Source of the DNA: a virus
Lineage: Duplodnaviria; Heunggongvirae; Uroviricota; Caudoviricetes
Virus record (IMG/VR): IMGVR_UViG_3300008108_000013
DNA length: 64,000 bases
Reading direction: 5' to 3' (one strand)
In this document: positions 34,978 to 50,514 of the stretch, in pieces
How the letters are laid out: each line of letters begins with the position of its first letter
Position numbering within the stretch: the first letter of the stretch is position 1
The notes under the pieces: generated by a model
Told to the model about the DNA's origin: nothing
The model's database searches: none
The model's input: the letters and a program-made list of their open reading frames with translations, nothing else
Program-made: the position numbers and the translations under genes

Positions 34978-35751
34978 ATGAAGATAATCATTGTCGGGTA
35001 TGGATTTGTAGGTAAAGCAGTTGCTAATGCTTTCAAGGATAAACACGAAATCGTAATCCAGGATCCACAATATACCGACTACAAACTAATGGATCATTTA
35101 GATGCAGATGGCATTATTATCTGTGTGCCAACTCCTACGACTGATAGAGGCATTTGTGATGCTAGTATTATTGCAGATATACTCGACTCAGTTCCTATCT
35201 ATATGCCAGTATTAATCAAGAGTACAGTAACTCCTGCTATTGTCCAAGGATTCGATGAAATATATCCTAATCATAGTATTTGTTATAGTCCAGAGTTTCT
35301 AAGAGCTAAAACTGCTAACGAAGATTTCCTAAATCAAAAATATGTTGTCATCGGTGGTGAAGATCCTGAATACTTTTGGCAAGAGCTATTTCAAAGTTCT
35401 CTACCAAACTGTAAAATGATTTTAAATTGCACACCAGATGAAGCATGTTTAGTCAAATATGCTACAAACAGTTTCCTAGCATTAAAAACTGGCTTTTTTA
35501 ATCAAATATATGATATATGCAACAAGACCGGATTAGATTTTGAAGCTGTTAGGCATATTATCTCTCAAGATAAGCGTATAGGTCCAGACCATACAATGGT
35601 TCCAGGGCCTGACGGATATCGTGGCTGGGGAGGTCATTGTTTCCCTAAAGACACAGAAGCATTTATTCAATGGACTAACACTATAGGTGCGCCAAGTAGT
35701 TTGGTAGAATCAGCCGTTGAATATAACAAAAAAGTAAGAAATGAGCATTGA
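34978..35751 (+). CDS. UDP-glucose/GDP-mannose dehydrogenase family protein, lacking the C-terminal domain
   Basis: GYGFVG, CVPTP, KSTV, SPEFLR, KYATNSFLA and GGHCFPKD motifs. Confidence 0.88.
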   Translation: MKIIIVGYGFVGKAVANAFKDKHEIVIQDPQYTDYKLMDHLDADGIIICVPTPTTDRGICDASIIADILDSVPIYMPVLIKSTVTPAIVQGFDEIYPNHSICYSPEFLRAKTANEDFLNQKYVVIGGEDPEYFWQELFQSSLPNCKMILNCTPDEACLVKYATNSFLALKTGFFNQIYDICNKTGLDFEAVRHIISQDKRIGPDHTMVPGPDGYRGWGGHCFPKDTEAFIQWTNTIGAPSSLVESAVEYNKKVRNEH

Positions 35752-35796: not shown

Positions 35797-36528
35797 ATGA
35801 AAGATATTTTACAAGACCTAGTAGCACATACTCACAGTCTAGGATTTATTCCCCTAGTTAAAGTTTCGTCTACTGGAACTGATACAGAAATCGAAGCAAT
35901 GGCAGAAGATCGATCTGTTATTGTTAACGCAAAGACTAAAACGCCTGTTGCAGAATTTACTGGCGTATTCGGTATGCCTAATCTAAATAAACTAGACATT
36001 CACCTTAAGTGCCCAGAGTACAAAGAAAAAGCAAAAATCAGTGTAGTCACTGCTGAACGTAACGGCGACACTATTCCAACAGGTCTACATTTTGAAAACG
36101 AAACAGGCGACTTTGAAAATGACTATCGTTTTATGAATACAGAGATCATTAACGAAAAATTAAAGTCAGTAAAGTTTAAAGGTGCTAAATGGGATATTGA
36201 ATTTCAACCTAGCGTCACTAGTATTCAAAAATTAAAATTCCAAGCTAATGCTAATTCGGAAGAAACAGTTTTTAAAGTTGAAACTAAAGGTGACAATTTA
36301 GTGTTCAGCTTTGGTGACGCAAGTACACACGCAGGCGAATTTGTATTCCAGCAAGGCGTTGTAGGTAAACTAAAACAAGTTTGGTCGTGGCCTGTTGTAC
36401 AAGTTATGAGTATTCTTAATTTACCCGGTGACATCACTATGAAGATCGCAGACGTTGGTGCAATGATGATCACAGTTGATAGCGGTATTGCTAGCTACGA
36501 TTATATTCTACCGGCACAAAGCAAATAA
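35797..36528 (+). CDS. Probable sliding clamp (gp45-like)
   Basis: About 245 aa, two-domain alpha/beta pattern, near PolB with a clamp loader in the window. GGAG RBS. No diagnostic motif. Confidence 0.55.
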   Translation: MKDILQDLVAHTHSLGFIPLVKVSSTGTDTEIEAMAEDRSVIVNAKTKTPVAEFTGVFGMPNLNKLDIHLKCPEYKEKAKISVVTAERNGDTIPTGLHFENETGDFENDYRFMNTEIINEKLKSVKFKGAKWDIEFQPSVTSIQKLKFQANANSEETVFKVETKGDNLVFSFGDASTHAGEFVFQQGVVGKLKQVWSWPVVQVMSILNLPGDITMKIADVGAMMITVDSGIASYDYILPAQSK

Positions 36529-36731
36529 TGGAAACAAAACAAAGAACAATTACAAGAATGATAACATATAGAATAACCGCTTGGTTATTCACTATAGTAT
36601 GGACTTACTTGTTTACTGGTGATGTAGGAAGTGCCACTGGATTTGCTACGGCACTACATATTCTGTTAAGTATCGACTACTACATACACGAAAGAATTTG
36701 GTTAAAAATAAAGTGGGGCAGAATTGAATAA
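36528..36731 (+). CDS. DUF2061-like small membrane protein
   Basis: ET..RT..R.ITYRI...YYIHERIW.KIKWG pattern. Confidence 0.7.
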   Translation: METKQRTITRMITYRITAWLFTIVWTYLFTGDVGSATGFATALHILLSIDYYIHERIWLKIKWGRIE

Positions 36732-38172
36732 GAATTTAACAGCAACACAAAGCGATTACGCAATATTTTTACCGGCTACATCTGGTTTCTATGCTACATT
36801 TATAGGAAAACAACGTTCTATGGGTAATTATGTTGATCCTGCACGTATTCCTAAAAGTTTTACTAGCGGTGTAGAAAGTCTAAATTATCTAGAGCCGGAT
36901 GCAGGTGCATTTTACTATAAATGGTGCTTGTATTCAGCAGGTCATGCGAACCTTGATCTTAACAAACAAGACGACGGTGAAGGTATGTTCCGTAATAGAG
37001 ATCGTAGTACTAGTTGGGTGTTAGGCGATTCAGGCGGTTTTCAGATCGGTAAAGGTGTTTGGGAAGCTGACTGGAAGAATCCTCACTGTCCGAAAGCCGC
37101 TAAAAAACGCAAACAGGTTCTTGATTGGATGGATGCACTCATGGATTATGGCATGTGTCTAGATATCCCAGCATGGGTTGCTCGTAGTCCGGCGGGACAA
37201 AAAGCCACAGGTATTACTAGCTATGCAGAAGCAGTACAAGGTACTTATATCAATAATGACTATTTTGTTAACAATCGCAACGGTAACTGTAAGTTTTTAA
37301 ATGTTCTCCAAGGCGAAAACCATGCAGACGCCGACGACTGGTACGATCGTATGAAAAAATACTGCGATACCAAGATCTATGGTGATCGTGCATTTAATGG
37401 TTGGGCTATGGGTGGACAGAATATGTGCGATATCCACCTTGTGTTAAAAAGATTAGTGGCTCTACGTCACGACGGATTACTAGAAAAGGGACAGCATGAC
37501 TGGATGCACTTCCTTGGAACTAGTAAATTAGAGTGGGCAACTCTGCTCACAGACATTCAACGTGCTGTAAGGAAATATCATAATGAAAACTTTACCATAT
37601 CTTTTGACTGCGCCTCACCGTTTTTGGCAACAGCAAACGGACAAATCTACATCCAAAGAATCTTCTCAAACTTCCAATCGAGTCCACTTATTGACCAAGT
37701 TGAAATAAAAGATATATGTATCTACAGGCCTGGTGACCTAAATAAGATAGGCAAAGAAGGCAAAACATCTTGGGATAGTTTTAGTTATGCTATACAAATG
37801 GGCCATAATGTTTGGATGCATTGTAATAGTGTACAGGAAGCCAATCGCCAATATGATGCAGGCAAGGTTCCAGCTATGTTAGTCCAAGAAAGATTCAATA
37901 GAATATATTTCAAAGATGTAGTCGAGGCTATCTTTGCAACAAGTAGTCGCGGTGAAGCTGAAGAAATTATTGAAGATTTTGATAAGTTTTGGCAAAGTAT
38001 TATTGGTACTCGAGGTGCAACAGGTAAGAAAACAGTTAATGCAAGCACTCAGTTTGCCGTTTTGTTTGACGAAGTAGCACCTGAGCCTGTACAATCAATA
38101 CACGACGATGGCGAATTTACAGAAGACGAAGAAGCCAAATTGGATCAACTTGAAGATGAAGTAAAACAATGA
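36724..38172 (+). CDS. TGT-fold guanine transglycosylase (DpdA-like)
   Basis: LGDSGGFQI, CLDIP, LNVLQG, GWAMGG, HFLGTS and SFDCAS motifs. folE and queE nearby. Confidence 0.8.
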   Translation: MNKNLTATQSDYAIFLPATSGFYATFIGKQRSMGNYVDPARIPKSFTSGVESLNYLEPDAGAFYYKWCLYSAGHANLDLNKQDDGEGMFRNRDRSTSWVLGDSGGFQIGKGVWEADWKNPHCPKAAKKRKQVLDWMDALMDYGMCLDIPAWVARSPAGQKATGITSYAEAVQGTYINNDYFVNNRNGNCKFLNVLQGENHADADDWYDRMKKYCDTKIYGDRAFNGWAMGGQNMCDIHLVLKRLVALRHDGLLEKGQHDWMHFLGTSKLEWATLLTDIQRAVRKYHNENFTISFDCASPFLATANGQIYIQRIFSNFQSSPLIDQVEIKDICIYRPGDLNKIGKEGKTSWDSFSYAIQMGHNVWMHCNSVQEANRQYDAGKVPAMLVQERFNRIYFKDVVEAIFATSSRGEAEEIIEDFDKFWQSIIGTRGATGKKTVNASTQFAVLFDEVAPEPVQSIHDDGEFTEDEEAKLDQLEDEVKQ

Positions 38173-38429
38173 CATTACCAGACGAAAGATATCGTGCAGT
38201 TAGAATGGCTAGACAGTTTTTGTTAGAGTTATGTGATTCAAACAAAACTCCTAGAATCCCGTCTATCATACGAAATCAAGCAAGAGGTATCCTTCGTCAT
38301 TACCCGAGTGACTGGGATATGGAACGTGCTTGTGAGGGTGCACCGGATGTTTTTCAGACACAGATGGAAGCAGTATCTAGGCTTATAAAACAATACGAAG
38401 ATTCAAAGACAAATAAAAATGAAACGTGA
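38169..38429 (+). CDS. Hypothetical protein
   Basis: 86-aa ORF with ATGA coupling. Confidence 0.65.
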   Translation: MTLPDERYRAVRMARQFLLELCDSNKTPRIPSIIRNQARGILRHYPSDWDMERACEGAPDVFQTQMEAVSRLIKQYEDSKTNKNET

Positions 38430-38967
38430 TTATTTAACAGGCACATCGGAAAATATTGATTTCTTTATTGGTAACGAGGTTGAACATACGCCTGCATTTG
38501 GTATGAGGACACTATTTGTTACAGGTGTACAGAACGACCAAGTAATAGAACATTTTCTTAACGAAGAAAATTCATACAGTGACTCATCAAAACATATCAA
38601 GCATATTTTCTTCGGTGCTAATCACAGTTTTAATCCAGGTTATGACGATTATCATGCATGGAAGTCTTGGGAAGATATGATCATTTACTTCCTCCAAAAA
38701 GATTATCTATGCAGTTTAGATATTCCATTGAGTGCTGTCGAACAGTTTAACGATGGCGGTTTGAACGAATACAGTAACTTTATTCCGCAAATTCGTGTGC
38801 CAATTCCTTATATTAAATTGTGGAATTATAATACAATGCTTAAAATTGATGACAAAGATTTTAAGGCAACTAATCCTGGTGTGTGGTCCCACAGTCTACA
38901 TACACTAATGGATCGTAGTAAGTTCACAGACTGGTCACAATATAAAAACGACGAAATTATCAAATGA
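38419..38967 (+). CDS. Hypothetical protein in the dpdA operon
   Basis: 182-aa alpha/beta ORF (EVEHTPAFG..TLFV, HIFFGANHSF). Confidence 0.7.
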   Translation: MKRDYLTGTSENIDFFIGNEVEHTPAFGMRTLFVTGVQNDQVIEHFLNEENSYSDSSKHIKHIFFGANHSFNPGYDDYHAWKSWEDMIIYFLQKDYLCSLDIPLSAVEQFNDGGLNEYSNFIPQIRVPIPYIKLWNYNTMLKIDDKDFKATNPGVWSHSLHTLMDRSKFTDWSQYKNDEIIK

Positions 38968-39359
38968 TTATTAAGCAAGACGTCCGTCCTAATAAAATGA
39001 TCTGGGTAACCTTTCAAAAGGAAGGTATTCATAAATATCCAGCCGCATTAACTGATCCCAATCTAGCTACAGGAGATGAATACGATGTATCGTTCCTTGG
39101 TCATCCTCACCGTCATATCTTTCATTTCAGGGTGTGGATCTCTGTGCAACACAATGACAGGGACATCGAGTTCATCCAATTCAAACGATGGCTCCTATCG
39201 CTGTATAATGGTCAAGGTTCCGTTTTAAGCCTTGACTACAAGAGTTGTGAGATGATGTCAGATGATTTATATAACATCATCACACTAAAGTATCCAGGTC
39301 GTGAGATCTGGATTGAGGTCTCCGAAGACGGAGAAAATGGTTCATTTATCAAATACTAA
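38964..39359 (+). CDS. QueD-like T-fold protein (LxxxHRHxF type)
   Basis: EGIH, LGHPHRHIF, DRDIEF, SCEM and VSEDGENG motifs. Confidence 0.7.
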   Translation: MIIKQDVRPNKMIWVTFQKEGIHKYPAALTDPNLATGDEYDVSFLGHPHRHIFHFRVWISVQHNDRDIEFIQFKRWLLSLYNGQGSVLSLDYKSCEMMSDDLYNIITLKYPGREIWIEVSEDGENGSFIKY

Positions 39360-39372
39360 GAAAGAGGCTATA

Positions 39373-39633
39373 ATGGCTAAGAACTATAACGATTATAAGT
39401 ATTTCGAAAATCGTCCCGATGTTGTCAAAGTTTTTGACGACTTAGATAAACTGCTCGACTTCTGTCGATTTGAACTGCTTCCGTTTAACGAAGCAGATTT
39501 ATATAACCGCAACAGTAAAGTGTGGCAACAGTATGAAAGATCTGCTAGACCACGCAAGCCGTGGAATGGCGAACGCAAGCCGTACCAAGGTAAAAATCCG
39601 AGATATAACAATGGCGAACGTTTTTCTCGTTGA
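39373..39633 (+). CDS. Hypothetical protein
   Basis: GAGG RBS before ATG 39373. Basic C-terminus. Confidence 0.65.
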   Translation: MAKNYNDYKYFENRPDVVKVFDDLDKLLDFCRFELLPFNEADLYNRNSKVWQQYERSARPRKPWNGERKPYQGKNPRYNNGERFSR

Positions 39634-40705
39634 TCTAGAAGCTGTTGAGACAAGGTACACGGGTCAATGGAAGACCCATGTGCCTGCTCTCTTACGAAAG
39701 GCAGGTCACAATGTTCAAATTATATCTGGCCCTACGGATATTCCTAGTGCAACCACTCCAGGCGCTTTTCTTAATTTCGGTGGGACTAACATATATAAGT
39801 CTGTACAAGTTGAGCAAATGGGGCGTTTATTTTGTAACGGAGCCATTCATTCCGGCGATCACTTTATCTTTACTGATGCTTGGCACCCTGGTATCATAAA
39901 CTTAAAGTACATGAGTGAATTACTAGGTATCCCTGTAGTCACACACGGTCTATGGCATGCTGGTAGTTATGATCCTCAAGATTTTTTAGGAAGACTAGTT
40001 GGTAATAAACCTTGGGTCAGACATGCTGAAAAATCGTTCTTTGCGGCATTCGATCATAATTATTTTGCCACGCAGTTCCATATCGATCTATTCCATCATA
40101 ATCTGCTTAATGACGGTCTTATTGAAAATCCTTGGGAAGCTGAGGACAAAGTAGATATGTTAGAAATTGGAAAGTATATTCGATCAGGCTGGCCTATGGA
40201 ATATATGGATGATACTCTTACTCCTTATAAGAGTATGTCTAAACGTGATTTAATTCTTTTTCCACATCGCATAGCACCTGAGAAGCAAGTTGAAATTTTT
40301 AGAGATTTAAAAGAACACTTGCCACAGTACGAGTTCGTAGTCTGTCAGGATCAACAGCTAACAAAAAATGAATATCATAACTTGTTAGGCGAAGCGAAAA
40401 TAGTGTTTAGTGCGAACCTACAAGAAACATTAGGTATCTCGTGTTACGAAGGTGCCGTTGTAGATGCTATTCCTATGGTTCCGGATAGATTAAGTTATAC
40501 AGAAATGTATTATGATACATTTAAGTATCCTAGTACTTGGACCGAAAGTTACGAAGCGTATGATGCCGCAAGACCTTTCGTAGTTGGAAAGATTATACAG
40601 TTTATGGATAACTATGAAAAATTTATTCCTACTATAAGAAAACAAGCGAGAGACTTACATGAACAATTCTTCTCAGCAGGCCAATTGCTCAATAACATCA
40701 AGTAG
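39611..40705 (+). CDS. GT-B fold glycosyltransferase (GT4-like)
   Basis: FPHRIAPEKQ and FSANLQETLGISCYEG..V.AIP motifs (E-x7-E). Start ATG 39611. Confidence 0.8.
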   Translation: MANVFLVDLEAVETRYTGQWKTHVPALLRKAGHNVQIISGPTDIPSATTPGAFLNFGGTNIYKSVQVEQMGRLFCNGAIHSGDHFIFTDAWHPGIINLKYMSELLGIPVVTHGLWHAGSYDPQDFLGRLVGNKPWVRHAEKSFFAAFDHNYFATQFHIDLFHHNLLNDGLIENPWEAEDKVDMLEIGKYIRSGWPMEYMDDTLTPYKSMSKRDLILFPHRIAPEKQVEIFRDLKEHLPQYEFVVCQDQQLTKNEYHNLLGEAKIVFSANLQETLGISCYEGAVVDAIPMVPDRLSYTEMYYDTFKYPSTWTESYEAYDAARPFVVGKIIQFMDNYEKFIPTIRKQARDLHEQFFSAGQLLNNIK

Positions 40706-41075
40706 TATAGACACAATAGATCTGTCTTGTCTAGATACTATTACAATAACTGACACCGGGTCTAGTTATACCGGTGATACTATCGTATTAGACCTAAGCG
40801 CCAGTGGGGCCAATAATACTTTTATTGGCTATAGTGCAACTACTGTAACTTCAGGTATATCTAATGTAGCGATTGGTCAATTGACTTCGTCGGATATTAG
40901 TTTTACATGGAAAAGTCCGGAAGAGTTTATAGATGCGTTTCCAGATTGGGAGCGGGTTGAAAAAATGTGTCAAGAATATCCCGGATTGAAAATTGCTTTG
41001 GAAAAATTTAAAACTACCTATAATCTCGTAAAGGACGATTATGATACTCCAAAAGATAAAAGAATTAAGCCTTAA
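40659..41075 (+). CDS. Hypothetical protein
   Basis: S/T-rich N-half. C-terminal FP....V..MC.EYP.LK.A..KF. Confidence 0.55.
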   Translation: MNNSSQQANCSITSSSIDTIDLSCLDTITITDTGSSYTGDTIVLDLSASGANNTFIGYSATTVTSGISNVAIGQLTSSDISFTWKSPEEFIDAFPDWERVEKMCQEYPGLKIALEKFKTTYNLVKDDYDTPKDKRIKP

Positions 41076-41544
41076 TCTTCTTGCACAATTAGATCGCAAA
41101 CGTATTGTAATGGATCGTGCTAGCGAAGAGCCGTATCTTGAAAGATATTATCTTTTCCTTAAAGACCGAAAACATTTTCCATTTAATGTGTTTCTACACA
41201 AGTTCTTAAAGAGCGATCCGGATGAAGTACACGATCATCCATGGAACTATTTTACTATTATATTAAAAGGTGGCTACTATGAATGGGTACCACAGTTTAG
41301 AGAAGACGGTACTCTCAGTTGCGAAGTAAGGAAGTGGAGGGGACCTGGTCACTTTCGTTTCTGTCGTGCAGAGAGTTATCACCGTATAGAATTAAAACCA
41401 GGTGTGACCTGTTGGACATTGTTCATGCCTGGAAGACAACGTCGAGAATGGGGTTTTCTCATGAACGACGAATGGGTGGAACATGGCAACTACTTACAGT
41501 ACAAATATACCGAATATCAATCTACCAAGCACGTACACAATTAA
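41041..41544 (+). CDS. Cupin-like protein
   Basis: HKF..SD.D..HDHPW...ILKGGY.E and HRIEL..WTLF motifs. Confidence 0.7.
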   Translation: MILQKIKELSLNLLAQLDRKRIVMDRASEEPYLERYYLFLKDRKHFPFNVFLHKFLKSDPDEVHDHPWNYFTIILKGGYYEWVPQFREDGTLSCEVRKWRGPGHFRFCRAESYHRIELKPGVTCWTLFMPGRQRREWGFLMNDEWVEHGNYLQYKYTEYQSTKHVHN

Positions 41545-41872
41545 TAACGGAGTTACTGGTTACACAACTGCGTGGACTCAACCAAATTCTCATTTTACCA
41601 GTTCAAACGGTAATCCTGTTATGACTATCCCCCACGGTGGTGATAAAGTCATTATAGAAGAGAAAGCGGCATTAGAAGTTAAAGGTAAACTAAAAATAAA
41701 TGGTGTCGATTTGGAAGAACGGCTAAACACAATCGAAACGGTCTTGCAAATTCCTACAAGAGATGTTATAATGGAGGCTAAGCATCCAAAACTAGCAGAA
41801 TTATACAAACAGTATATGTATGAATTGGAAAAGTATAAAACATTTGAAAGGCTAAAAGGAGAAGACAAATGA
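41483..41872 (+). CDS. Hypothetical protein
   Basis: 129-aa ORF. Confidence 0.6.
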   Translation: MATTYSTNIPNINLPSTYTINNGVTGYTTAWTQPNSHFTSSNGNPVMTIPHGGDKVIIEEKAALEVKGKLKINGVDLEERLNTIETVLQIPTRDVIMEAKHPKLAELYKQYMYELEKYKTFERLKGEDK

Positions 41873-42105
41873 GAGAACTACACCCAGACGTTGCTCACAC
41901 AGCAAAAGAAATGATTATTAAAGAAAGCGAAGGCTTTAGACTTCGCATGGAAAAGTGGGAAAGTATCAATCCTAAGGGATTGTTTACTGTTGATCTTATT
42001 CAAGAAAGTCTAGACGAAGATGGCAATGTGCAATATACTAGCACATATAATTTCAACATGACTAAAGAAGAACTTCAGGCTCTTGCTTACGGATTAACTG
42101 CATGA
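41869..42105 (+). CDS. Hypothetical protein
   Basis: 78-aa ORF with GGAG RBS. Confidence 0.6.
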   Translation: MRELHPDVAHTAKEMIIKESEGFRLRMEKWESINPKGLFTVDLIQESLDEDGNVQYTSTYNFNMTKEELQALAYGLTA

Positions 42106-42650
42106 AAAAAATATATTATAGCTGGAGTCAAGTCGAAGGAGCATGTTTAGACATTACTCGCCAAATGTCGGCACACGATTGGAAGCCCGACTATATTGTA
42201 GGTATTACCCGAGGTGGACTTATTCCAGCTAACTTACTCAGTCAGTATACTGGTATTCCAATGCACACACTTAATGTTAGTCTACGTGACGGTAGTGGTG
42301 GCGAAAGTAATCTGTGGATGGCTGAAGATGCTATAGGAGTTGTCCCTAGTGATCAAAGACATGTATGGGGAGATCATAAACACCTTGAACGTCTTAAAAA
42401 GAAAATCCTTATCGTAGATGACATCAATGATAGCGGTGCAACTATCAACTGGATTAAGCAAGATTGGCCTAGTGGATGTTTTCCCGATAGCAATGAATGG
42501 AATCAAATATGGGGCGATAATGTACGGTTCGCTACACTAACACACAATTTTGGAAGTAAATTTAAAGATCCAGATTATTTTGTCTGGACTGTTGACAAGC
42601 GAGAACATGACTGTTGGCTTGTATATCCTTGGGAGGAATTTTGGTTATGA
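42102..42650 (+). CDS. Type I phosphoribosyltransferase (Gpt-like)
   Basis: IVGITRGGLIPA and ILIVDDINDSGAT PRPP loop. Terminal YPWE. Confidence 0.88.
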   Translation: MKKIYYSWSQVEGACLDITRQMSAHDWKPDYIVGITRGGLIPANLLSQYTGIPMHTLNVSLRDGSGGESNLWMAEDAIGVVPSDQRHVWGDHKHLERLKKKILIVDDINDSGATINWIKQDWPSGCFPDSNEWNQIWGDNVRFATLTHNFGSKFKDPDYFVWTVDKREHDCWLVYPWEEFWL

Positions 42651-42844
42651 TTAAAAGCATTTTAAAACTTATTCTAGGTATCTCATTACTCATTATAGTA
42701 ATTGTCATCGGACCACTGCTCGGTATTTGGTCACTTAATACATTATTTCCTGTACTAGCAATTCCATATACCTGGGAAACTTGGGCGGCATTCTTGCTAC
42801 TCTTCGGTAGTGCCACTGGTTTAAGATTCGGTGCAAAAAAATGA
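42647..42844 (+). CDS. Small two-TM membrane protein
   Basis: Hydrophobic 65-aa ORF with ATGA couplings. Confidence 0.6.
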   Translation: MIKSILKLILGISLLIIVIVIGPLLGIWSLNTLFPVLAIPYTWETWAAFLLLFGSATGLRFGAKK

Positions 42845-43020
42845 ACGACTTGTCTTTAAAAGAACTACAAGAAAAAATTGATAAAGTTACCAAAGACATC
42901 GAAGGACTAAGATCTACCGGAGATTCGAGTAGAAAACTTGAGGTACTGACAGAGTATAAAAAATATTTAGAAGATGAATTGAGGTTTCTAAAAAATGAAA
43001 AAAACGGACGACACTTATAA
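42841..43020 (+). CDS. 59-aa coiled-coil protein (below ORF-track cutoff)
   Basis: MNDLSLKELQEKIDKVTKDIEGLR... fills the gap between genes. Confidence 0.65.
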   Translation: MNDLSLKELQEKIDKVTKDIEGLRSTGDSSRKLEVLTEYKKYLEDELRFLKNEKNGRHL

Positions 43021-43396
43021 AGTATTTCCTGCAGAGCCAGGATTTATCGAAGATAGCAAGGCACCGTGGACTGAACTTGTCGAAGAAGACTATCATGTTA
43101 AAATTTTTGCAGACAAGTATCCCGTAACTCCGGGCCACCTCTTATTTGTACCTAAATATAATACAGTTTCAGTATTAATGGATTGTTTTGAAGCGGCCAT
43201 TGAAGATGGGATTAAGCGTGTAAAAAACGGAGAATGGGACGGTTTTAATGTTGGATTTAATTACGGACATGCAGCCGGACAAACTGTTAATTGGCCGCAC
43301 GTTCATCTTATTCCGAGACGCAAGGGTGATATGGAAGATCCTACAGGAGGAGTTAGACACGTTATTCCAGAAAGAGGCAACTATCGCAAATGGTAA
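42995..43396 (+). CDS. HIT family nucleotide hydrolase
   Basis: DKYPVTPGHLLFVPK and GFNVGFNYG.AAGQTV.WPHVHLIPRR motifs. Confidence 0.9.
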   Translation: MKKTDDTYKVFPAEPGFIEDSKAPWTELVEEDYHVKIFADKYPVTPGHLLFVPKYNTVSVLMDCFEAAIEDGIKRVKNGEWDGFNVGFNYGHAAGQTVNWPHVHLIPRRKGDMEDPTGGVRHVIPERGNYRKW

Positions 43397-43593
43397 AAGA
43401 ACATAAGATTCGTATTGACTGGGCTGAGCAAGACGGTCACTGGTGGAACGAAACTTGTATTAGTGTTATAGAAGTTTTTGGATTACCTGGTGATAGATTT
43501 TCTTGGCATCCTCATCATGATTATATGGAATTTAGTTTTACAAAGAAAAAGGATGCAGAGTTATGTCAAATACTTCTAAGCGAGAAATTATAA
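43390..43593 (+). CDS. Hypothetical protein
   Basis: 67-aa ORF. Confidence 0.6.
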   Translation: MVKEHKIRIDWAEQDGHWWNETCISVIEVFGLPGDRFSWHPHHDYMEFSFTKKKDAELCQILLSEKL

Positions 43594-43595
43594 AA

Positions 43596-43763
43596 ATGAT
43601 TTTATTCTTTTTATTTCTTCTATCGCTATTGGCCTTTGCTATCTTTATAGCACTGAACCAACCAAAATACAAAGTCTACGACTGTTCTCTATCTGAGATA
43701 AGTCCTGATTACCCGATTGAAGTAAAAGAAGAATGTCGCCGTATTCGAGCGAATTATATTTGA
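43596..43763 (+). CDS. Small membrane-anchored protein
   Basis: TM helix, then YDCS..EISPDYP..VKEECR. Confidence 0.55.
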   Translation: MILFFLFLLSLLAFAIFIALNQPKYKVYDCSLSEISPDYPIEVKEECRRIRANYI

Positions 43764-43788
43764 AAAAACCTAAATAAGAATGTATAGT
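43760..43788 (+). promoter_or_regulatory. Sigma70-type promoter with an embedded TAAATA upstream of folE
   Basis: TTGAAA-N17-TATAGT. CCTAAATA in the spacer. Confidence 0.6.
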
Positions 43789-43832
43789 TATACTATATGG
43801 CAATCCCCTGCCTCAACATCGGAGAAAAAGAA

Positions 43833-44669
43833 TTGACAACAAAATTTACACCAGATCCTGTTCTTAATACAGAGATCGACAAAACGTTTATAAAAGACGA
43901 ATACGAACCTTTAGGTAAGCCAGTTTATATTAAAAAAGAAACAGCCTTAGATGCCATGGCAGGCGAAGGCGGGTATCAAGAAGCATATCTAGCAGATGTT
44001 CTTCGGTTTAAAATGAAACGTGACAACAAACGTTTCTGGGCCGGAGATAATATCAGCGACTATGTAAGTGAAGAAGATAAAGCTAAACTAATTGACGAAG
44101 CAACAGAGGCATTTGAAACTGTGCTTGATCGTTTGCTAATCGACAGAGAAACTGACCCCAATAGTAAAGGCACAGCACGTCGACTGGCTAAGATGTATTT
44201 TAACGAAATAATGGCAGGTAGATATGATCCAGCACCAGATGCAACAGCGTTTCCAAATGATACGGAGGACCGCTACGAAGGTATGTTGGTTGTTCGCAGT
44301 GAGCTTCGCAGTATGTGTAGCCATCATCATCAGCCCGTTAGTGGTGTTGCCTATATTGGTATTATTGCGGCTTCCAAGCTCATTGGACTTTCTAAATACA
44401 CACGCATCGCACAGTGGTGCGCCAGACGTGGTACTCTCCAGGAGGAACTTGCTAATGATATTGCTCGCGAGATCTCCAAAGCTACCGGAGCAACAGATGT
44501 AGGTGTGTATGTACAGGCTGTACATGGTTGCTGTGAAAATCGCGGCATTATGGCGCACTCAAGTCTTACACAGACTACTGTTCTCAAAGGTGCTTTCAAA
44601 GACGATCCAGGAACTAAAAAAGAGTTCTTTGATAATATTAAATTACAACAGGACTTTGCTCCAAGATGA
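43833..44669 (+). CDS. folE: GTP cyclohydrolase I
   Basis: SMCSHHHQP, GLSKYTRI, QEEL and HGCCENRG motifs. TTG start after GGAG. Confidence 0.95.
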   Translation: MTTKFTPDPVLNTEIDKTFIKDEYEPLGKPVYIKKETALDAMAGEGGYQEAYLADVLRFKMKRDNKRFWAGDNISDYVSEEDKAKLIDEATEAFETVLDRLLIDRETDPNSKGTARRLAKMYFNEIMAGRYDPAPDATAFPNDTEDRYEGMLVVRSELRSMCSHHHQPVSGVAYIGIIAASKLIGLSKYTRIAQWCARRGTLQEELANDIAREISKATGATDVGVYVQAVHGCCENRGIMAHSSLTQTTVLKGAFKDDPGTKKEFFDNIKLQQDFAPR

Positions 44670-45331
44670 TAGTTCCAATGACTGTAAAACAAACTACGGC
44701 TCTCTTAGGAGCCAACTTTGTTTCTACATTCCAATCTGAAATGAACGCGATTATTAATCCATTAAGGAAACACATCTCGTTAGGTAGACCTTTGAGTATG
44801 GGTAAAGAACTTTGGGAATATGTCGTTGCTGACAGTATTCCTGGAGCAGTATGGAACGGTGCAGGGCATAGTTTAATCGATGTTATGATTACACCAGGTG
44901 TAGGTGGTGATGTAAAATCAGTTAGCTATAATAAAAAGAGTAAACAAACTACAGAAGCTAGCATGTATCAAAATTTTGATCAAAATGCTAAACAATATTT
45001 TGCTAATAATGACAAACAAGCAATCTGGGATCTATATGTCAACGGTTGGTTTAAAAAAGCTCATTCATTTTCAAAATATTATCTTATTGGAATTTTGAGA
45101 CAAAAAGAATCATTAGATTGCAATTTATGTTGTTTCGAAATAACTGATGCTGTACCTCAATTCTCAGACAGCCTTTTCGTACCAACAAAAAAGATGTGGT
45201 ATATAAACGGACTCGGAGATCCAGATTTTCTAAAAATTAGATACTATAATAGTAAAAGCAGATTAGAGATTCAGTTTACTAAGAAATGTTGGACAGATCC
45301 CGAATATACCCTGCCAATTTTTAAATTTTAA
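44666..45331 (+). CDS. Putative PD-(D/E)xK nuclease
   Basis: ELWE...LIDV......GDVKS pattern resembling type II restriction endonuclease active sites. Confidence 0.45.
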   Translation: MIVPMTVKQTTALLGANFVSTFQSEMNAIINPLRKHISLGRPLSMGKELWEYVVADSIPGAVWNGAGHSLIDVMITPGVGGDVKSVSYNKKSKQTTEASMYQNFDQNAKQYFANNDKQAIWDLYVNGWFKKAHSFSKYYLIGILRQKESLDCNLCCFEITDAVPQFSDSLFVPTKKMWYINGLGDPDFLKIRYYNSKSRLEIQFTKKCWTDPEYTLPIFKF

Positions 45332-45339
45332 GGAAAAAT

Positions 45340-45555
45340 ATGTCTACAGCAAATGAACTAACGCAACAACTAATCGACCGTGCTAAAAATTTGAAGGAAT
45401 TTATAGTGCGTAGAGATTTTGATAGTATTCCACCTGGAGTGGTTAAATTTGATGTACAACACACTCAAGGAGAATCTGCTCGAATTTTTGTCCATGCTCT
45501 TACACAACAAGAAGCTGAACAAATGGTAGACGAGTGGTTTGAAGAACATGAGTGA
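45340..45555 (+). CDS. Hypothetical protein
   Basis: 71-aa ORF with AAGGA RBS. Confidence 0.6.
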   Translation: MSTANELTQQLIDRAKNLKEFIVRRDFDSIPPGVVKFDVQHTQGESARIFVHALTQQEAEQMVDEWFEEHE

Positions 45556-45778
45556 TGAAAAATTAATACATACCTATAACAAGTTTATGGTACTAACAGA
45601 TAAACTATTAGGAGAAGATGTTAAGGCAATCGAAATTGCGCCTATCCTAATTAAACTTGGTTTAGAGATTTATAAAACTGTCATGTCGCCTGAAGATTAT
45701 AATAGAATGGTAGATTTTATTTCTGATCACAGAGACGAGATAAACGACTTATCAGATTTTTTACCGGAGTTACACTAA
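45548..45778 (+). CDS. Hypothetical protein
   Basis: Small helical ORF overlapping its neighbours. Confidence 0.6.
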   Translation: MSDEKLIHTYNKFMVLTDKLLGEDVKAIEIAPILIKLGLEIYKTVMSPEDYNRMVDFISDHRDEINDLSDFLPELH

Positions 45779-46242
45779 TGGAACATCAAGAGCCAGCAGA
45801 AGGTATTCTAAAACGTAATGACTTTGGTGATAGTAAGTTTTACCAAATTGTCTGCGGTTGTGGTCAAGAATATCACGACCACAACGTTGAAGTTGAAGCA
45901 AGCGATACTGGTATTAATGTAAACTTATATATTTCTGTTAAAACAAATTATTGGTCTGAACTTATTGAAAAGCGTTACGACATTGACAGTCCTTATTTGC
46001 AGGAACTAGACTGGTTTTTTAAAGATTTGATTAACGGCTTCTGGACTCGATTAAAGGTCACTTGGCAGTTGTGGACTACTGGTGCAGTAACTGCCGAATC
46101 AACTATCGCTCTGTCCGAACAACAAGCCCTTAACTATGCAGAGACGTTAAAATCAGCTATTAAGGATGTGAAAGATTTTAAAAAAAATCATAACAAAACA
46201 CACAAAGAAACACAAATATATAATGAAGGCGATTGTGTATGA
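45778..46242 (+). CDS. Hypothetical protein with a CGC..H motif
   Basis: GGAG RBS and TAATG coupling. Confidence 0.6.
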   Translation: MEHQEPAEGILKRNDFGDSKFYQIVCGCGQEYHDHNVEVEASDTGINVNLYISVKTNYWSELIEKRYDIDSPYLQELDWFFKDLINGFWTRLKVTWQLWTTGAVTAESTIALSEQQALNYAETLKSAIKDVKDFKKNHNKTHKETQIYNEGDCV

Positions 46243-47096
46243 GTAAAATTAAGATAGCAGAATTATTTTATAGTATCCAAGGTGAAGGACGGTATATGGG
46301 TGTTCCGTCTGTTTTCTTGCGTACATTTGGTTGTAACTTTAAATGTGCTGGCTTTGGTATGCCCAAAGGTGAACTAAGTTCAGAAGTTGAAGATATTGCG
46401 ATACAGCACGAAAGAGCACCTTATACAAAGTACGAAGAATTACCATTAGTTAGCACAGGCTGTGATAGCTACGCAAGTTGGGATCCACGCTTCAAAGATC
46501 TTAGTCCAATGCTTACGACAGATGCCATCGCTGAACGTATCTGTGAAATTCTTCCATTTAATGAGTGGAAAGACGAACATCTTGTTATTACAGGCGGAGA
46601 GCCATTATTAGGTTGGCAACGTGCTTATCCAGACTTGCTCGAACATCCCAAGATGAAATCTCTCCGAGAAATTACATTTGAAACAAATGGCACCCAAATG
46701 TTAACTCCAGACTTTAAAAAATATTTACTCAACTGGGGTATGGAAAATCGACATTACAATCGACTAACTTTTTCTGTGAGCGCAAAACTAAGTTGCTCGG
46801 GAGAAGCAAGACATGAGGCTATAAGACCAGATGTAGTTTGTCAGTATGAAGAAGTAGGCTACACATATCTTAAATTTGTTGTAGCGACAGAAGAAGATGC
46901 TGAAGAAGCACTAGAAACTGTAGACATTTACAGAGCTGAAGGGTTTGAAGGCCCGGTATATCTTATGCCAGTTGGCGGAGTTGAAAGTGTTTATGCTCTT
47001 AATAATCGCCGTGTAGCAGAACTAGCTATGAAGAACGGCTTACGCTACAGTGACCGACTTCAAGTTCCATTATTTAAAAATGAGTGGGGAACTTAA
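46239..47096 (+). CDS. queE: 7-carboxy-7-deazaguanine synthase (radical SAM)
   Basis: ELFYSIQGEG, FLRTFGCNFKC...CDS, VITGGEP, ETNGT and SDRLQ motifs. Confidence 0.9.
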   Translation: MSKIKIAELFYSIQGEGRYMGVPSVFLRTFGCNFKCAGFGMPKGELSSEVEDIAIQHERAPYTKYEELPLVSTGCDSYASWDPRFKDLSPMLTTDAIAERICEILPFNEWKDEHLVITGGEPLLGWQRAYPDLLEHPKMKSLREITFETNGTQMLTPDFKKYLLNWGMENRHYNRLTFSVSAKLSCSGEARHEAIRPDVVCQYEEVGYTYLKFVVATEEDAEEALETVDIYRAEGFEGPVYLMPVGGVESVYALNNRRVAELAMKNGLRYSDRLQVPLFKNEWGT

Positions 47097-48229
47097 TGTT
47101 CTTCCAAATCAGTAGACACCCTGATAATAGTTTTCCTAATCACTGCCACTGGGGTGATCTAGTCGTTAATCACGATAACGGTTGGACACTCCAAGATAAT
47201 ATACTTTATAAAGGTACTGTATCGTCAGGGCTTCTAAAAATTGATAGTCTAAAAGACTTCGAAAAAGAAAAAGGAACATTTTGTATTTTAGAATACAAAG
47301 ATAATGGTGTGTATGTTGAAACAGGAGAAAAACAAAAATTTCCTATCTTCGTCGATGATGATAATTTATTAGTAACAAATATCTGGCGGGACCAAGAATC
47401 GTTCCAAGGTAAAGTATTTGTCACTAATAAAATTAAAAAAATTCCATACATACAACCGTCATACAAACATTTAAATTTATCCGATGATCAAATCATCGAT
47501 GCTGTAGATAATTTAATCGAGCAAACTATTTTAAATTTTAAAACAGATAAACCTTTTCAATTATTTGTTTCAGGTGGTGTAGATACAATTATACTAGCCG
47601 CGTACCTACTGAAAAATAAACTACCGTACGAACTTATCCCCGGCGAACACACTGAGATGGATTATTTTTTATGCCATAATAGAAGTAAACTAAAGAATTA
47701 TTGGGCGTATGCTGGCGGATCGCATCATTGGAAGGAACAAAGGATAGTAATATCAGGTGCTCATGGTGATGAAAATCTGCTGAGGAATCCTGTAAGTGCT
47801 TACTTGATTTTAAAACATAATAATGAAAATTTAAAATCAGTTTGTGAACAAAATTTAAACTTATACCATAGTAAATATTTTCTTCAAAAAAAACATCTAA
47901 ATCTTTTTGACACTTTAAAAGACTTAGAATTTGATAGCGATGAAAAGTTAAAAGATTGGCTATTAAAAGGTAATACTGTAGATTATCAACACTGGCATTT
48001 AGGAAATACAATATTTTTTACTCCATTCGACAACTTAGAGTTATTCAATTTAATGTTAAATCTAAGTTATGATAGGGCTAGAAATCAACTGCTCGATGCG
48101 AGTATAAGTAAAGAACTGATTAGACGTAATTACCCAAGTCTATTAAAATACGTTTCCCAATCAAAAAACGAAAGAAATTTTGAAAATTTAGCTAAAGTAT
48201 ATGACGGCTTAGAACATCTAGGTGATTAA
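47096..48229 (+). CDS. Asparagine synthetase-like N-type ATP pyrophosphatase
   Basis: LFVSGGVDT and ISGAHGDE motifs. No N-terminal Cys. TAATG-coupled to queE. Confidence 0.7.
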   Translation: MFFQISRHPDNSFPNHCHWGDLVVNHDNGWTLQDNILYKGTVSSGLLKIDSLKDFEKEKGTFCILEYKDNGVYVETGEKQKFPIFVDDDNLLVTNIWRDQESFQGKVFVTNKIKKIPYIQPSYKHLNLSDDQIIDAVDNLIEQTILNFKTDKPFQLFVSGGVDTIILAAYLLKNKLPYELIPGEHTEMDYFLCHNRSKLKNYWAYAGGSHHWKEQRIVISGAHGDENLLRNPVSAYLILKHNNENLKSVCEQNLNLYHSKYFLQKKHLNLFDTLKDLEFDSDEKLKDWLLKGNTVDYQHWHLGNTIFFTPFDNLELFNLMLNLSYDRARNQLLDASISKELIRRNYPSLLKYVSQSKNERNFENLAKVYDGLEHLGD

Positions 48230-48533: not shown

Positions 48534-48941
48534 ATGAAAAATTGGTTGAAAAGTTTTTTTGGGATTGATAAATTAGAAAAAGAAAGAGCAGAGATATTAG
48601 CTAGAGTAGCTGAGGCAAAATCTAAAGAAGAAATCTCAAAGATGTCGCCTAAAGATCTTGCAACTAAAAGAGGCGAGCCTTGGGTAGCTGTACTCGATAC
48701 TAAGGTTAATAAAGACAACGTTCGAAATGGTTTTTTTGAACTAGATTGGAATGAATATTTTATCACTGAACTTAAAAAAGCAGGGTATGGATTCGACGGT
48801 GACCCTGAAGAAGAAATTGTAGATCGGTGGTTTCGAGATCTAGCAAGAAACATGCTAGCCGAAGAAGGATTGGACGCTTCAAGAAGTGCTGGATTTATCA
48901 ACGTAAACAAAATTAATAAAAATCAATCCGAAGTATCGTAA
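48534..48941 (+). CDS. Hypothetical protein
   Basis: EPWV.VL...GFFELDWN..FI..L pattern. Confidence 0.65.
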   Translation: MKNWLKSFFGIDKLEKERAEILARVAEAKSKEEISKMSPKDLATKRGEPWVAVLDTKVNKDNVRNGFFELDWNEYFITELKKAGYGFDGDPEEEIVDRWFRDLARNMLAEEGLDASRSAGFINVNKINKNQSEVS

Positions 48942-49522
48942 TGAACAGAATTGTTGACAATCACGAGTATATTGATCAATATAATTGGTCTTCTCTCATT
49001 ACAGAAACAGATAATCAAGAAATAATGCGTGTTGTTAAATCAATTATCGACAACGGAAATTATTTTAAAAATAGTCCTAAGTTTCAAACACAAGAAAATT
49101 TATTTGCTAGGCAAGAAACTGTTTTCTTAAAAATGAGACAGAGCTTTATATATTCTTGCTTTATGTTTTTAGGCGGGGAGGTACGTATTAAAAACATGAT
49201 GAGTTGGTGCTTTATGACTAGTCAAAACGAAGTCGAGAACCGAGAAGATCTCTGGCACACTCATCATTTAAATGACAACAACGGAACGACTAATACTTTG
49301 AGCGGTGTATGGTATGTTAATATTCCAAAATCAATAACAAACTATGATACCGCAGGAACCGAATTCTGTTTAGATTGGGCAAACAAACAGGATTACATTT
49401 ATCTCAGACCAAATAACTTGACATGGAACATATATCCTAGTAAACTGTGGCATAGGCCCGGAATCATTGATACTGATGAGTACCGATTCGTTTTTGCCGC
49501 AGACATGGAATATTATAAATGA
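48941..49522 (+). CDS. Probable 2OG-Fe(II) oxygenase
   Basis: WHTH..TLSGVWYVNIP..GTEF..YPSKLWHRP..RFVFAAD motifs. Confidence 0.65.
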   Translation: MNRIVDNHEYIDQYNWSSLITETDNQEIMRVVKSIIDNGNYFKNSPKFQTQENLFARQETVFLKMRQSFIYSCFMFLGGEVRIKNMMSWCFMTSQNEVENREDLWHTHHLNDNNGTTNTLSGVWYVNIPKSITNYDTAGTEFCLDWANKQDYIYLRPNNLTWNIYPSKLWHRPGIIDTDEYRFVFAADMEYYK

Positions 49523-50514
49523 CATATATTTTGGTTGATACAGCCAACACATTTTTCCGTGCTAGACACGTAATCAACGGTTCTAGCGACATTAAACTTG
49601 GCATGGCTTTCCATATTACTTTTAACAGTATTAAGAAAGCATGGAATGACTTTGAAGGGAAACATGTCGTATTCTGTTTAGAAGGTCGCTCGTGGCGCAA
49701 AGACTTTTACACCCCGTATAAGCGTAATCGACAAGAAACTAGAGATGCATTAACTCCTAAAGAACAAGAAGAAGACAAATTGTTCTGGGAAGCATTTGAC
49801 GAATTCAAATCATTTGTTATCGAAAAGACTAACTGTACTGTATTACATCACCCGCAACTAGAAGCAGATGATTTAATTGCAGGCTTTATTCAAAGTCATC
49901 CTAAAGATAAACATGTCATTATTTCAACCGACAGTGACTTCTATCAGCTCATTGCACCGAATGTAAGTCAATATAACGGTGTCCAAGAACATCATATCAC
50001 ACACGAAGGAATCTATGATGCCAAGGGTAAACTTGTCGTTGATAAAAAAACAAAAGAACCTAAAGAAGCTCCAAACCCGGAATGGCTCTTGTTTGAAAAA
50101 TGTATGCGTGGTGATACCAGTGATAATGTCTTCTCGGCGTATCCAGGTGTGCGTACTAAAGGTACAAAAAACAAAGTGGGTCTTACAGAAGCGTTCGAAG
50201 ATCGTAAAAGCAAAGGATTTGCGTGGAACAATCTCATGCTACAGAGATGGGTTGATCATGAAGGAAAAGAACACAGAGTTTTGGAAGACTATGAGAGAAA
50301 TAGGCGACTAATCGATCTTGCACATCAACCCGAAGATATTAAAGAGCTTATTAAGAAAACAATCGAAGTAGATTGTGTTCCTAAAGACATTACACAAGTA
50401 GGTATTCGTATGCTCAAGTTTTGTAATCATTGGGACATGAAAAAAATTGCTGATAATATTCAACAATACGCAGAACCATTCCAAGCAAAATATCCAGAAA
50501 GAGTAGAGGCATAA
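49519..50514 (+). CDS. rnh: 5'-3' exonuclease / T4 RNase H-like
   Basis: VDTAN..FR, EADDLIA, STDSDFYQL and GDTSDNV motifs. Confidence 0.9.
   Translation: MTYILVDTANTFFRARHVINGSSDIKLGMAFHITFNSIKKAWNDFEGKHVVFCLEGRSWRKDFYTPYKRNRQETRDALTPKEQEEDKLFWEAFDEFKSFVIEKTNCTVLHHPQLEADDLIAGFIQSHPKDKHVIISTDSDFYQLIAPNVSQYNGVQEHHITHEGIYDAKGKLVVDKKTKEPKEAPNPEWLLFEKCMRGDTSDNVFSAYPGVRTKGTKNKVGLTEAFEDRKSKGFAWNNLMLQRWVDHEGKEHRVLEDYERNRRLIDLAHQPEDIKELIKKTIEVDCVPKDITQVGIRMLKFCNHWDMKKIADNIQQYAEPFQAKYPERVEA

Follow-up and report, generated by a model that had tools for sequence, protein, structure and literature searches.

The window analysed here, a 64-kb stretch of DNA, comes from an uncultured freshwater jumbo phage, and its deazaguanine genes adjoin the DNA polymerase gene of that phage. 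The features of the region are as follows.

34978..35751, +, truncated UDP-glucose/GDP-mannose dehydrogenase-like protein lacking the C-terminal domain (PF00984 1.6e-23; PF03721 1.5e-11)
36724..38172, +, divergent DpdA-like transglycosylase of 482 aa with a TGT fold (motifs, AF2/Foldseek, hhalign)
38169..38429, +, conserved small ORF of 86 aa overlapping dpdA and the next gene (in 53/81 related loci)
38419..38967, +, conserved 182-aa protein (o182), a module companion (37 invariant columns in 34 sequences)
38964..39359, +, DpdL homologue, a QueD paralogue and proposed 7-carboxy-7-deazaguanine decarboxylase (motif, phiST homology, phrog_17812)
39611..40705, +, GT-B (GT1/GT4-like) glycosyltransferase (GT), conserved companion of DpdL and DpdA (homologues, family-level PF00534)
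41041..41544, +, cupin, cysteine-dioxygenase-like, group-specific accessory (phrog_4786 2.6e-39; 42 related loci)
42102..42650, +, phosphoribosyltransferase, PRTase (PF00156 1e-12)
42995..43396, +, HIT-family protein, group-specific accessory (PF01230 1.1e-9; 25 related loci)
43797..44669, +, FolE, GTP cyclohydrolase I (PF01227 2.2e-38; phrog_2197)
44666..45331, +, 221-aa ORF inserted after folE (carried by near-identical genomes)
46233..47096, +, QueE (CDG synthase) variant, radical SAM (phrog_2076 4e-53)
47084..48229, +, PP-loop, AsnB-like protein with a probable start at 47096 (SGGVDT; TIGR01536 E 0.009; Atlas features)
48941-49522, weak 2OG-oxygenase-like ORF (PF13759 2.6e-4, below cut-off)

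FolE, a QueE of atypical form, a DpdL homologue and a strongly divergent DpdA together make up the core of the locus, a QueC-less, DpdL-type 7-deazaguanine module of known kind, like that of Cellulophaga phage phiST. The order DNA polymerase, dpdA, o182, dpdL, GT, folE, queE and RNase H is kept across dozens of related loci, and in PA5oct, ACP17, X1 and Phosso an equivalent core adjoins the DNA polymerase gene. We therefore consider it likely that the region represents a QueC-less DpdL-type 7-deazaguanine DNA-modification module set within the replication gene block and accompanied by the GT and the 182-aa protein. A preliminary description of this DNA had proposed a QueC-less 7-deazaguanine DNA-modification system with a DpdA-type transglycosylase, and the gene identities, the TGT fold, the catalytic Asp and the DpdL homology support that proposal. 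The matches listed above also bear out the folE, queE, cupin, PRTase and HIT genes it had named, whereas for its 2OG oxygenase a similar ORF is indeed present with a match under the cut-off.

The protein encoded at 38964..39359, previously taken for an atypical T-fold novelty, turns out to be a homologue of DpdL, a described family. Its residues 45-53, LGHPHRHIF, fit LxxxHRHxF, the DpdL signature that replaces the CxxxHGH of QueD (PMC10516641). BLASTP aligns it with CGPG_00067 of phiST at 34% identity over 116 aa (E 2e-16), tblastn on phiST lands on the same gene, and identities to the ACP17, PA5oct, X1 and Phosso counterparts are 55-70%. It also keeps the company of a DpdL, being accompanied by DpdA, FolE and QueE without QueC, with QueD seen in relatives.

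The DpdA-like protein belongs to a family of at least 971 clusters at 50% identity, whose profile carries invariant DSGG, LD.P and FD motifs. A family alignment of 80 sequences shows D102, S103, G105, D147, P149, H262, G265 and D295 to be invariant and the conserved Cys of the Zn site to be absent. The three invariant Asp residues, D102 (DSGGFQ), D147 (LDIP) and D295 (SFDC), are all intact in the window copy; the reference catalytic and substrate-binding Asp residues are D102, D156 and D280 in Z. mobilis TGT numbering, and in a comparison with the DpdA profile DSGGyQ and the second Asp align with Z. mobilis TGT. Although the window DpdA has no match to Pfam TGT among the scanned ORFs of 32.3-52 kb, the TGT-fold gene of the preliminary description is confirmed by these motifs and by structural modelling of an intact, 99%-identical homologue without a deletion (P0006). 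The AF2 model of P0006 (pLDDT 91.9, pTM 0.92) is predicted to adopt a TGT-type (beta/alpha)8 barrel, and all 50 of its top 50 Foldseek PDB matches are tRNA-guanine transglycosylases (E 5e-7, probability 1.00, TM by target 0.49-0.57). By hhalign, DpdA scores 96.9% against the candidate DpdA of ACP17, and 85.8% against DpdA3 of phiST with 83 columns aligned; judged from its sequence it seems to form a PA5oct-type branch of its own. The window copy itself bears a 36-codon (108 bases) in-frame deletion between 37657 and 37658. The missing 108 bases are kept by every relative and in four public lake runs, and the segment they encode is structured and retained in 80/80 representatives; the DpdA of this particular assembly may thus be impaired.

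FolE bears a ~95-aa N-terminal extension. The QueE variant keeps the N-terminal ELFYSIQGEGRYMG motif (F-S-x-Q-G-E-G type), yet its cluster motif reads Cx3Cx38C rather than the ordinary Cx3Cx2C, owing to a 36-residue insertion inside the motif. Five QueE NCBIfam models match it at 5e-14 to 7e-10, all far under their cut-offs. It is 30% identical to PA5oct QueE, which shares the insertion, while the ACP17 QueE has none. As for the reported lack of queC and queD, no QueC, QueD or Pfam-TGT match was obtained when the ORFs of 32.3-52 kb were compared with Pfam and PHROGs, and tblastn with two QueD queries over the whole window gave no match either. Relatives carry QueD 45-50 kb upstream of dpdA. 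In the complete cultured relatives (4/4) QueD is encoded tens of kb away and QueC is lacking, and among five large uncultured relatives QueD occurs in 3/5 and QueC in 0/5. Hence the QueC part of the earlier claim stands and the QueD part does not, the relatives' gene positions suggesting that QueD is probably missing through the window's edge alone. The absence of QueC is genuine, yet it is the defining trait of the DpdL-type systems already described.

Two ORFs of the region have a different standing. The 221-aa ORF after folE has no counterpart in the related loci (0/80) and no family match, and by this comparison is a lineage-specific insertion rather than part of the conserved module. The product of 47084-48229, whose PP-loop, AsnB-like nature is weakly supported by sequence, matches no QueC model of Pfam or NCBIfam. 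The preliminary description had coupled this gene to queE, and an AsnB-like enzyme ligating an amine to the CDG carboxylate would indeed yield a new amide-linked deazaguanine. Its start codon abuts or overlaps the queE stop, an arrangement retained in near-identical genomes from several samples, and the SGGVDT motif goes together with a weak asparagine-synthase similarity. However, none of the 80 related loci carries this gene, and there the next conserved genes come straight after queE; the AsnB-like family counts only 31 clusters, with no match among cultured phages; and four other contexts of its homologues are radical-SAM, AspH-like and halogenase islands with no deazaguanine genes called beside them. 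Moreover, the presence of a DpdL homologue points to removal of the carboxylate. We therefore regard an amide-linked base as very improbable, and the AsnB-like gene, on its distribution, as a lineage-specific insertion outside the module.

The proposed pathway would begin with FolE, QueD (encoded outside the window) and the atypical QueE making 7-carboxy-7-deazaguanine (CDG), which the DpdL homologue is proposed, by analogy with Cui et al. 2023, to decarboxylate to 7-deazaguanine. The divergent DpdA, given its fold, catalytic residues and context, would then exchange guanine in DNA for the deazapurine. Its location amid replication genes (DNA polymerase, RNase H), the absent Zn-site Cys and the G-linked restriction resistance of PA5oct DNA are indirect hints that it acts on DNA and not on tRNA. 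Most likely the GT-B enzyme and the 182-aa protein would contribute to a further step or make one possible; as their co-occurrence suggests, this might be the transfer of a sugar onto the modified base in DNA.

The accessory genes could be read another way, with FolE, QueD, QueE, PRTase, HIT and GT making a free 7-deazapurine nucleoside or glycoside (tubercidin/toyocamycin or huimycin type) or a pterin glycoside instead of modified DNA. PRTases build the nucleoside in the tubercidin and toyocamycin pathways, and cyanobacterial pteridine glycosides are made by FolE, PTPS and a GT-B enzyme. The module contains a PRTase both in this phage and in PA5oct, where gp321, between dpdL and queE, matches PF00156 at 2e-11. 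Close by are genes for a HIT protein and for enzymes of sugar-nucleotide type (UGDH-like, epimerase-like); the UDP-glucose/GDP-mannose dehydrogenase-like gene separates the DNA polymerase gene from dpdA and is present in 40/81 related loci. Nevertheless, the most conserved member of the module, a DpdA-type transglycosylase whose catalytic Asp residues are intact, is encoded with the DNA polymerase gene on one side and the RNase H gene on the other; PA5oct DNA is itself restriction-resistant at G-containing sites; and the QueE step commits the route to CDG rather than pterins. A small-molecule product thus appears improbable to us.

Homologues of the GT in Phosso (50%), PA5oct (40%), ACP17 (35%) and X1 (25%) each adjoin dpdL or dpdA. 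The best hit of the window GT itself is only Glyco_transf_61 at E 0.03, and the family profile meets PglH/WlaC at E 0.17; Glycos_transf_1 (PF00534) matches 6/33 family members, with a best value of 8e-12, and Atlas features point to GT1/GT4 clusters, so that the GT-B assignment holds at the family level. Among cultured phages, 17/17 strong homologues (from the PA5oct group, ACP17, X1, BUDD, BCSR5 and Phosso) have a DpdL homologue no more than 4 kb away, and none was found without such a neighbour. The earlier placement of this GT-B gene in the dpdA operon is supported as to enzyme type, at the family level, and as to conserved neighbourhood; however, the overlapping genes run from dpdA to dpdL, and the 250-nt gap with promoter-like and terminator-like sites that precedes the GT means that a shared operon is not shown. 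As previously described, a 182-aa protein accompanies the module. Its homologues are confined to PA5oct-like phages, at 42% identity, and to ACP17, at 32%, where the gene immediately precedes dpdA. A model of the 182-aa protein (pLDDT 78) has no significant fold match; the 86-aa ORF gave no match in family-model searches.

Because the GT is conserved across distant phage lineages, the glycosylated derivative raised in the preliminary description is a live possibility. Tentatively, and with clearly less than even odds, DpdL-type modules that include a GT (those of this phage group and of PA5oct, ACP17, X1 and Phosso) may install a sugar-decorated 7-deazaguanine in DNA, for instance an N-glycoside or a 7-carboxyl glycosyl ester, assisted by the 182-aa protein and possibly also by the PRTase. 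If true, it would be, in the literature searched, the earliest description of a glycosylated purine from any DNA. A point against the sugar step is that 7-deazaguanine offers no evident hydroxyl to which a sugar could be O-linked. Alternatively, the module might install unsubstituted 7-deazaguanine as in phiST, with the GT and the 182-aa protein serving other ends, such as modified cytosine or protein glycosylation, and being merely syntenic in the replication block. This is a possible account that we would not call probable. Twelve DpdL-bearing phage records lack the GT, among them phiST with its proven dDG (PMC10516641), so the GT is dispensable for base exchange; the missing hydroxyl, the promoter-like/terminator-like gap upstream of the GT and the use of GT-B enzymes on cytosine derivatives by T4-like phages (PMC13326640) are also in keeping with it. 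It fits poorly with a GT that stays beside dpdL or dpdA in five lineages despite different gene orders and two DpdA types, with the failure to find strong homologues away from DpdL, and with the results of Cui et al., who expressed dpdL and dpdA of ACP17, obtained no dDG from these two alone and raised the possibility that further enzymes are required (PMC10516641).

Among known systems, that of phiST comprises FolE, QueD, QueE, MazG, DpdL and DpdA3, and dDG is present in the DNA of this phage (Cui, Hutinet et al. 2023, PMC10516641). The locus described here resembles it in FolE, QueE, a DpdL homologue with LxxxHRHxF (34%), a TGT-superfamily transglycosylase, the lack of QueC and, in relatives, the presence of QueD. 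It differs in a remotely related DpdA of 482-518 aa instead of 259 aa, in the QueE insertion, in a QueD ~45 kb off, and in the addition of GT-B, 182-aa protein and PRTase, with no MazG seen. PA5oct (Wroclawvirus) has a block of the same make-up beside its DNA polymerase gene (EST35_0316-0322: DpdA-like 32%, GT 40%, DpdL-like 55%, QueE 30% with the insertion shared, and a PRTase), annotated as hypothetical except for QueE. Its DpdL carries HFH in place of HRH, its block includes no cupin, HIT or FolE, its QueD is ~53 kb upstream, and its 182-aa homologue is elsewhere in the genome. PA5oct virion DNA resists several restriction enzymes, a pattern that the authors assign to modified G; published work names just QueE and PTPS, and END nucleases, sensors of hypermodified DNA, target this phage (PMC12191111). 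In Acidovorax phage ACP17 the locus comprises QueD, FolE, an o182-like protein, DpdA, GT, DpdL and QueE, and resembles the window in having DpdL (55%), GT and the 182-aa homologue around a DpdA that adjoins the DNA polymerase gene. In contrast, its DpdA is of another branch, nearest to Vibrio phages nt-1, VH7D and KVP40, its QueE has the ordinary Cx3Cx2C motif, and its QueD adjoins FolE. No sequence link was found between the window GT and the GT4-like DNA arabinosyltransferases of RB69 and DLP3 or the T4 alpha/beta-glucosyltransferases, and those enzymes act on hydroxyls of 5-hydroxy- or 5-hydroxymethyl-cytosine. They are nonetheless GT-B enzymes of T4-like phages that decorate a modified DNA base after replication, as the window GT might, and for GT4-like members in other T4-like phages such post-replicative glycosylation of DNA bases has been proven (PMC13326640).

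The deazaguanine module is real and belongs to an uncultured freshwater jumbo T4-like phage, in which all genes of the region are encoded on the plus strand. It is flanked by two replication genes:

32310-34976, plus strand: family-B DNA polymerase
49519-50514, plus strand: 5'-3' exonuclease/RNase H

Lying between the DNA polymerase and RNase H genes, the deazaguanine module therefore sits within the replication module. NCBI contig JAVQHP010095413.1, a near-identical genome, shares 99.5-99.8% DNA identity with the window and begins 2.1 kb before it. A small indel relative to the near-identical genome L092 is seen at 31002-31070, where two BLAST segments overlap. A tblastn search with the window proteins against 80 related IMG/VR loci reveals a constant gene order, i.e., pol, (UGDH-like), o247, dpdA, (o86), o182, dpdL, GT, o138, cupin, o129, o78, PRTase, HIT, folE, o154, queE and RNase H, with o182 and GT encoding a 182-aa protein and a GT-B glycosyltransferase, respectively. 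Directly 3' of the DNA polymerase gene, a 257-aa UDP-glucose/GDP-mannose dehydrogenase-like protein (34978-35751), which is without the C-terminal domain and occurs in about half of the relatives, may serve in sugar nucleotide supply or binding. A 67-aa DUF2061 predicted membrane protein (36528-36731) overlaps the start of dpdA. A promoter scan yields 60 sites versus 50.7 ± 7.3 for shuffled sequence, so that promoters are no more frequent than the shuffled expectation.

Pfam and PHROGs confirm the cupin, PRTase and HIT protein that the preliminary description placed near the module, as well as FolE (43797-44669), and the QueE-like radical SAM enzyme (46233-47096) is likewise borne out (phrog_2076, 4e-53). 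QueE contains the usual N-terminal FYSIQGEG motif and a Cx3Cx38C cluster motif (C34, C38 and C77). An insertion of 36 residues lies between its second cysteine and its third; it is common to the window and PA5oct enzymes, whereas ACP17 QueE is without it. The 131-aa protein encoded at 38964-39359, previously taken for an atypical T-fold protein, proves to be DpdL. Its LGHPHRHIF stretch exactly matches LxxxHRHxF, the signature separating DpdL from QueD (Cui et al., PMC10516641), and it shares 34% identity (E 2e-16) with the founding DpdL, CGPG_00067 of Cellulophaga phage phiST, and 55-70% identity with proteins of ACP17, PA5oct, X1 and Phosso. The reported absence of QueC stands, as no QueC scores above the cut-off in 9/9 records searched (five large related contigs and four complete cultured relatives), and this absence is the defining trait of DpdL-type systems. 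The reported absence of QueD does not. Although QueD is undetectable within the window, three of the five large related contigs carry a canonical PTPS/QueD gene 45-50 kb upstream of dpdA, and the complete genomes of the cultured relatives PA5oct, ACP17, X1 and Phosso (4/4) also encode QueD. Since QueD lies far upstream of dpdA in relatives, its apparent lack is almost certainly a window-edge effect. In L100, a QueD-bearing relative without DNA similarity to the window, the gene is found 2.2 kb upstream of a giant fibre gene.

We read the 482-aa protein encoded at 36724-38172 as a divergent PA5oct-type DpdA. The ORF has no match in Pfam, PHROG or NCBIfam, and PDB searches with single sequences of DpdA, the PP-loop protein described below and GT matched nothing. 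Clustering of its family gives no fewer than 8000 clusters when the identity level is set to 90%, and at least 971 at the 50% level (E ≤ 1e-3); an 80-sequence family alignment shows invariant D102-S-G-G, D147, H262 and D295. The family profile matches the Z. mobilis TGT weakly but consistently, with DSGGyQ aligned. The AlphaFold model of P0006, an intact homologue 99% identical to the window protein, is confident (pLDDT 91.9), with tRNA-guanine transglycosylase as every one of the 50 best PDB matches that Foldseek finds for it (probability 1.0, E 5e-7). In hhalign comparisons, the family aligns with the ACP17 DpdA candidate at 96.9% and more weakly with phiST DpdA3, at 85.8% over 83 columns. 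Since so large a family escapes Pfam, counts of deazaguanine DNA modification in freshwater jumbo phages are probably too low.

The window copy of dpdA carries a deletion. Its product is identical to P0006 at 478 of 482 residues and misses 36 residues after GQIYIQ; at the DNA level, exactly 108 bases are absent, in frame, between 37657 and 37658 relative to the 99.5-99.8% identical genome, and the junction shows no microhomology. In the AlphaFold model of P0006, the corresponding segment lies 17 residues past the catalytic D295 and is confidently predicted to fold into a beta-hairpin and a pair of short helices. At least 18 residues are kept at this site in 80/80 family representatives, and the 108 bases are present in contigs from four public lake/freshwater runs, with the deleted form found in none of the contigs listed for these runs. 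The segment being kept in all representatives and in the lake-run contigs, the deletion is private to the window's assembly, and is either an artefact of assembly or a rare allele that is possibly impaired.

Two further genes interrupt the conserved order. The AsnB-like PP-loop protein encoded after queE (47084-48229, with an SGGVDT motif) had been proposed to generate an amide-linked deazaguanine, a proposal that finds no support: the protein has just 31 homologous clusters and no match in cultured phages, and its gene is absent from the 80 related loci, where queE directly precedes the next conserved genes. Its homologues in four other contexts (L087, L089, L098 and L099) always lie beside radical-SAM genes, in islands that contain AspH-like hydroxylase, tryptophan-halogenase and AMP-binding genes, and members of this family may act together with a radical-SAM enzyme. 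A 285-aa gene upstream of the homologue in L087 was considered as a QueE relative and rejected on comparison. In the window's species, the insertion downstream of queE is genuine: NCBI, ENA and JGI assemblies contain it. The second gene, a 221-aa ORF (44666-45331) that overlaps the folE stop, looks like a mobile insertion; it is present in near-identical genomes and in none of the 80 related loci, and it has no family match, although a nuclease had been suggested earlier.

The core of the module recurs in cultured phages, with differing arrangements:

PA5oct (Pseudomonas): dpdA-GT-dpdL-...-PRTase-queE
ACP17 (Acidovorax): queD-folE-o182-dpdA-GT-dpdL-queE
X1 (Xanthomonas): folE-...-GT-dpdA-dpdL-queE
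Phosso: dpdL-GT-...-folE-...-queE

By megablast, the region has zero matches to cultured phages. As the PA5oct module also contains a PRTase, this gene is a recurring member of GT-bearing modules. PA5oct gp320 and gp321 (L001:12419-13383), located between dpdL and queE, are an NAD-epimerase-like fragment and the PRTase. In X1, a 177-aa PAPS-reductase-type PP-loop protein is encoded after folE (L091:4197-4730) and belongs to a PP-loop family different from that of the window.

In the cultured-phage collection, each of the 17 strong GT homologues has a DpdL homologue no more than 4 kb away. At family level, GT appears to be of the GT-B fold and GT1/GT4 type, with Glycos_transf_1 detected in 6/33 members and Atlas features in agreement; a predicted complex of DpdA with GT scores 0.00, which weighs neither way. 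Conservation of the 182-aa protein is high, 37 alignment columns being invariant, and among cultured phages its homologues are confined to PA5oct-like phages and ACP17. Foldseek finds no PDB match for it at E ≤ 0.001, AFDB clusters contain a single unnamed homologue, and its Atlas features stay below 0.9. In a wide VIA-align search, QueE structures rank top (Z 6.3, 5.8 and 5.2), under the tool's noise level of 7-8, making this possible resemblance a lead only. phiST CGPG_00066, a candidate homologue, is unrelated on comparison.

Building on the observed gene identities, fold, motifs, synteny and co-occurrence, we propose a pathway in which FolE and QueD would convert GTP to CPH4, QueE would convert CPH4 to 7-carboxy-7-deazaguanine (CDG), and DpdL would convert CDG to 7-deazaguanine, which DpdA would then exchange for G in DNA. 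GT, perhaps together with the 182-aa protein, might modify the base further. Published backing for this mechanism is indirect: ACP17 DpdL and DpdA alone produce no dDG, the deoxynucleoside of 7-deazaguanine, in E. coli (PMC10516641), and DNA bases of RB69 and DLP3 are glycosylated by GT4-like enzymes (PMC13326640). A literature search found no description of a glycosylated deazaguanine in DNA. Of the further-decorated deazaguanine envisaged in the preliminary description, the amide branch finds no support, whereas the sugar branch remains plausible because GT is kept beside DpdL or DpdA; we consider the sugar-bearing base itself a tentative outcome, less likely than not.

In no fewer than five phage lineages, GT is tied to the DpdA/DpdL genes, which suggests an unexplored purine chemistry. 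To our knowledge, eight derivatives of 7-deazaguanine have been described in phage DNA, each with either small substituents or no substituent at all, and DNA glycosylation described to date concerns pyrimidines only. The cultured phages PA5oct, ACP17 and X1 make the sugar idea directly testable, and PA5oct DNA is restriction-resistant and sensed by END nucleases (PMC12191111). Twelve DpdL-bearing records are without GT, among them phiST, in whose DNA dDG is proven (PMC10516641).
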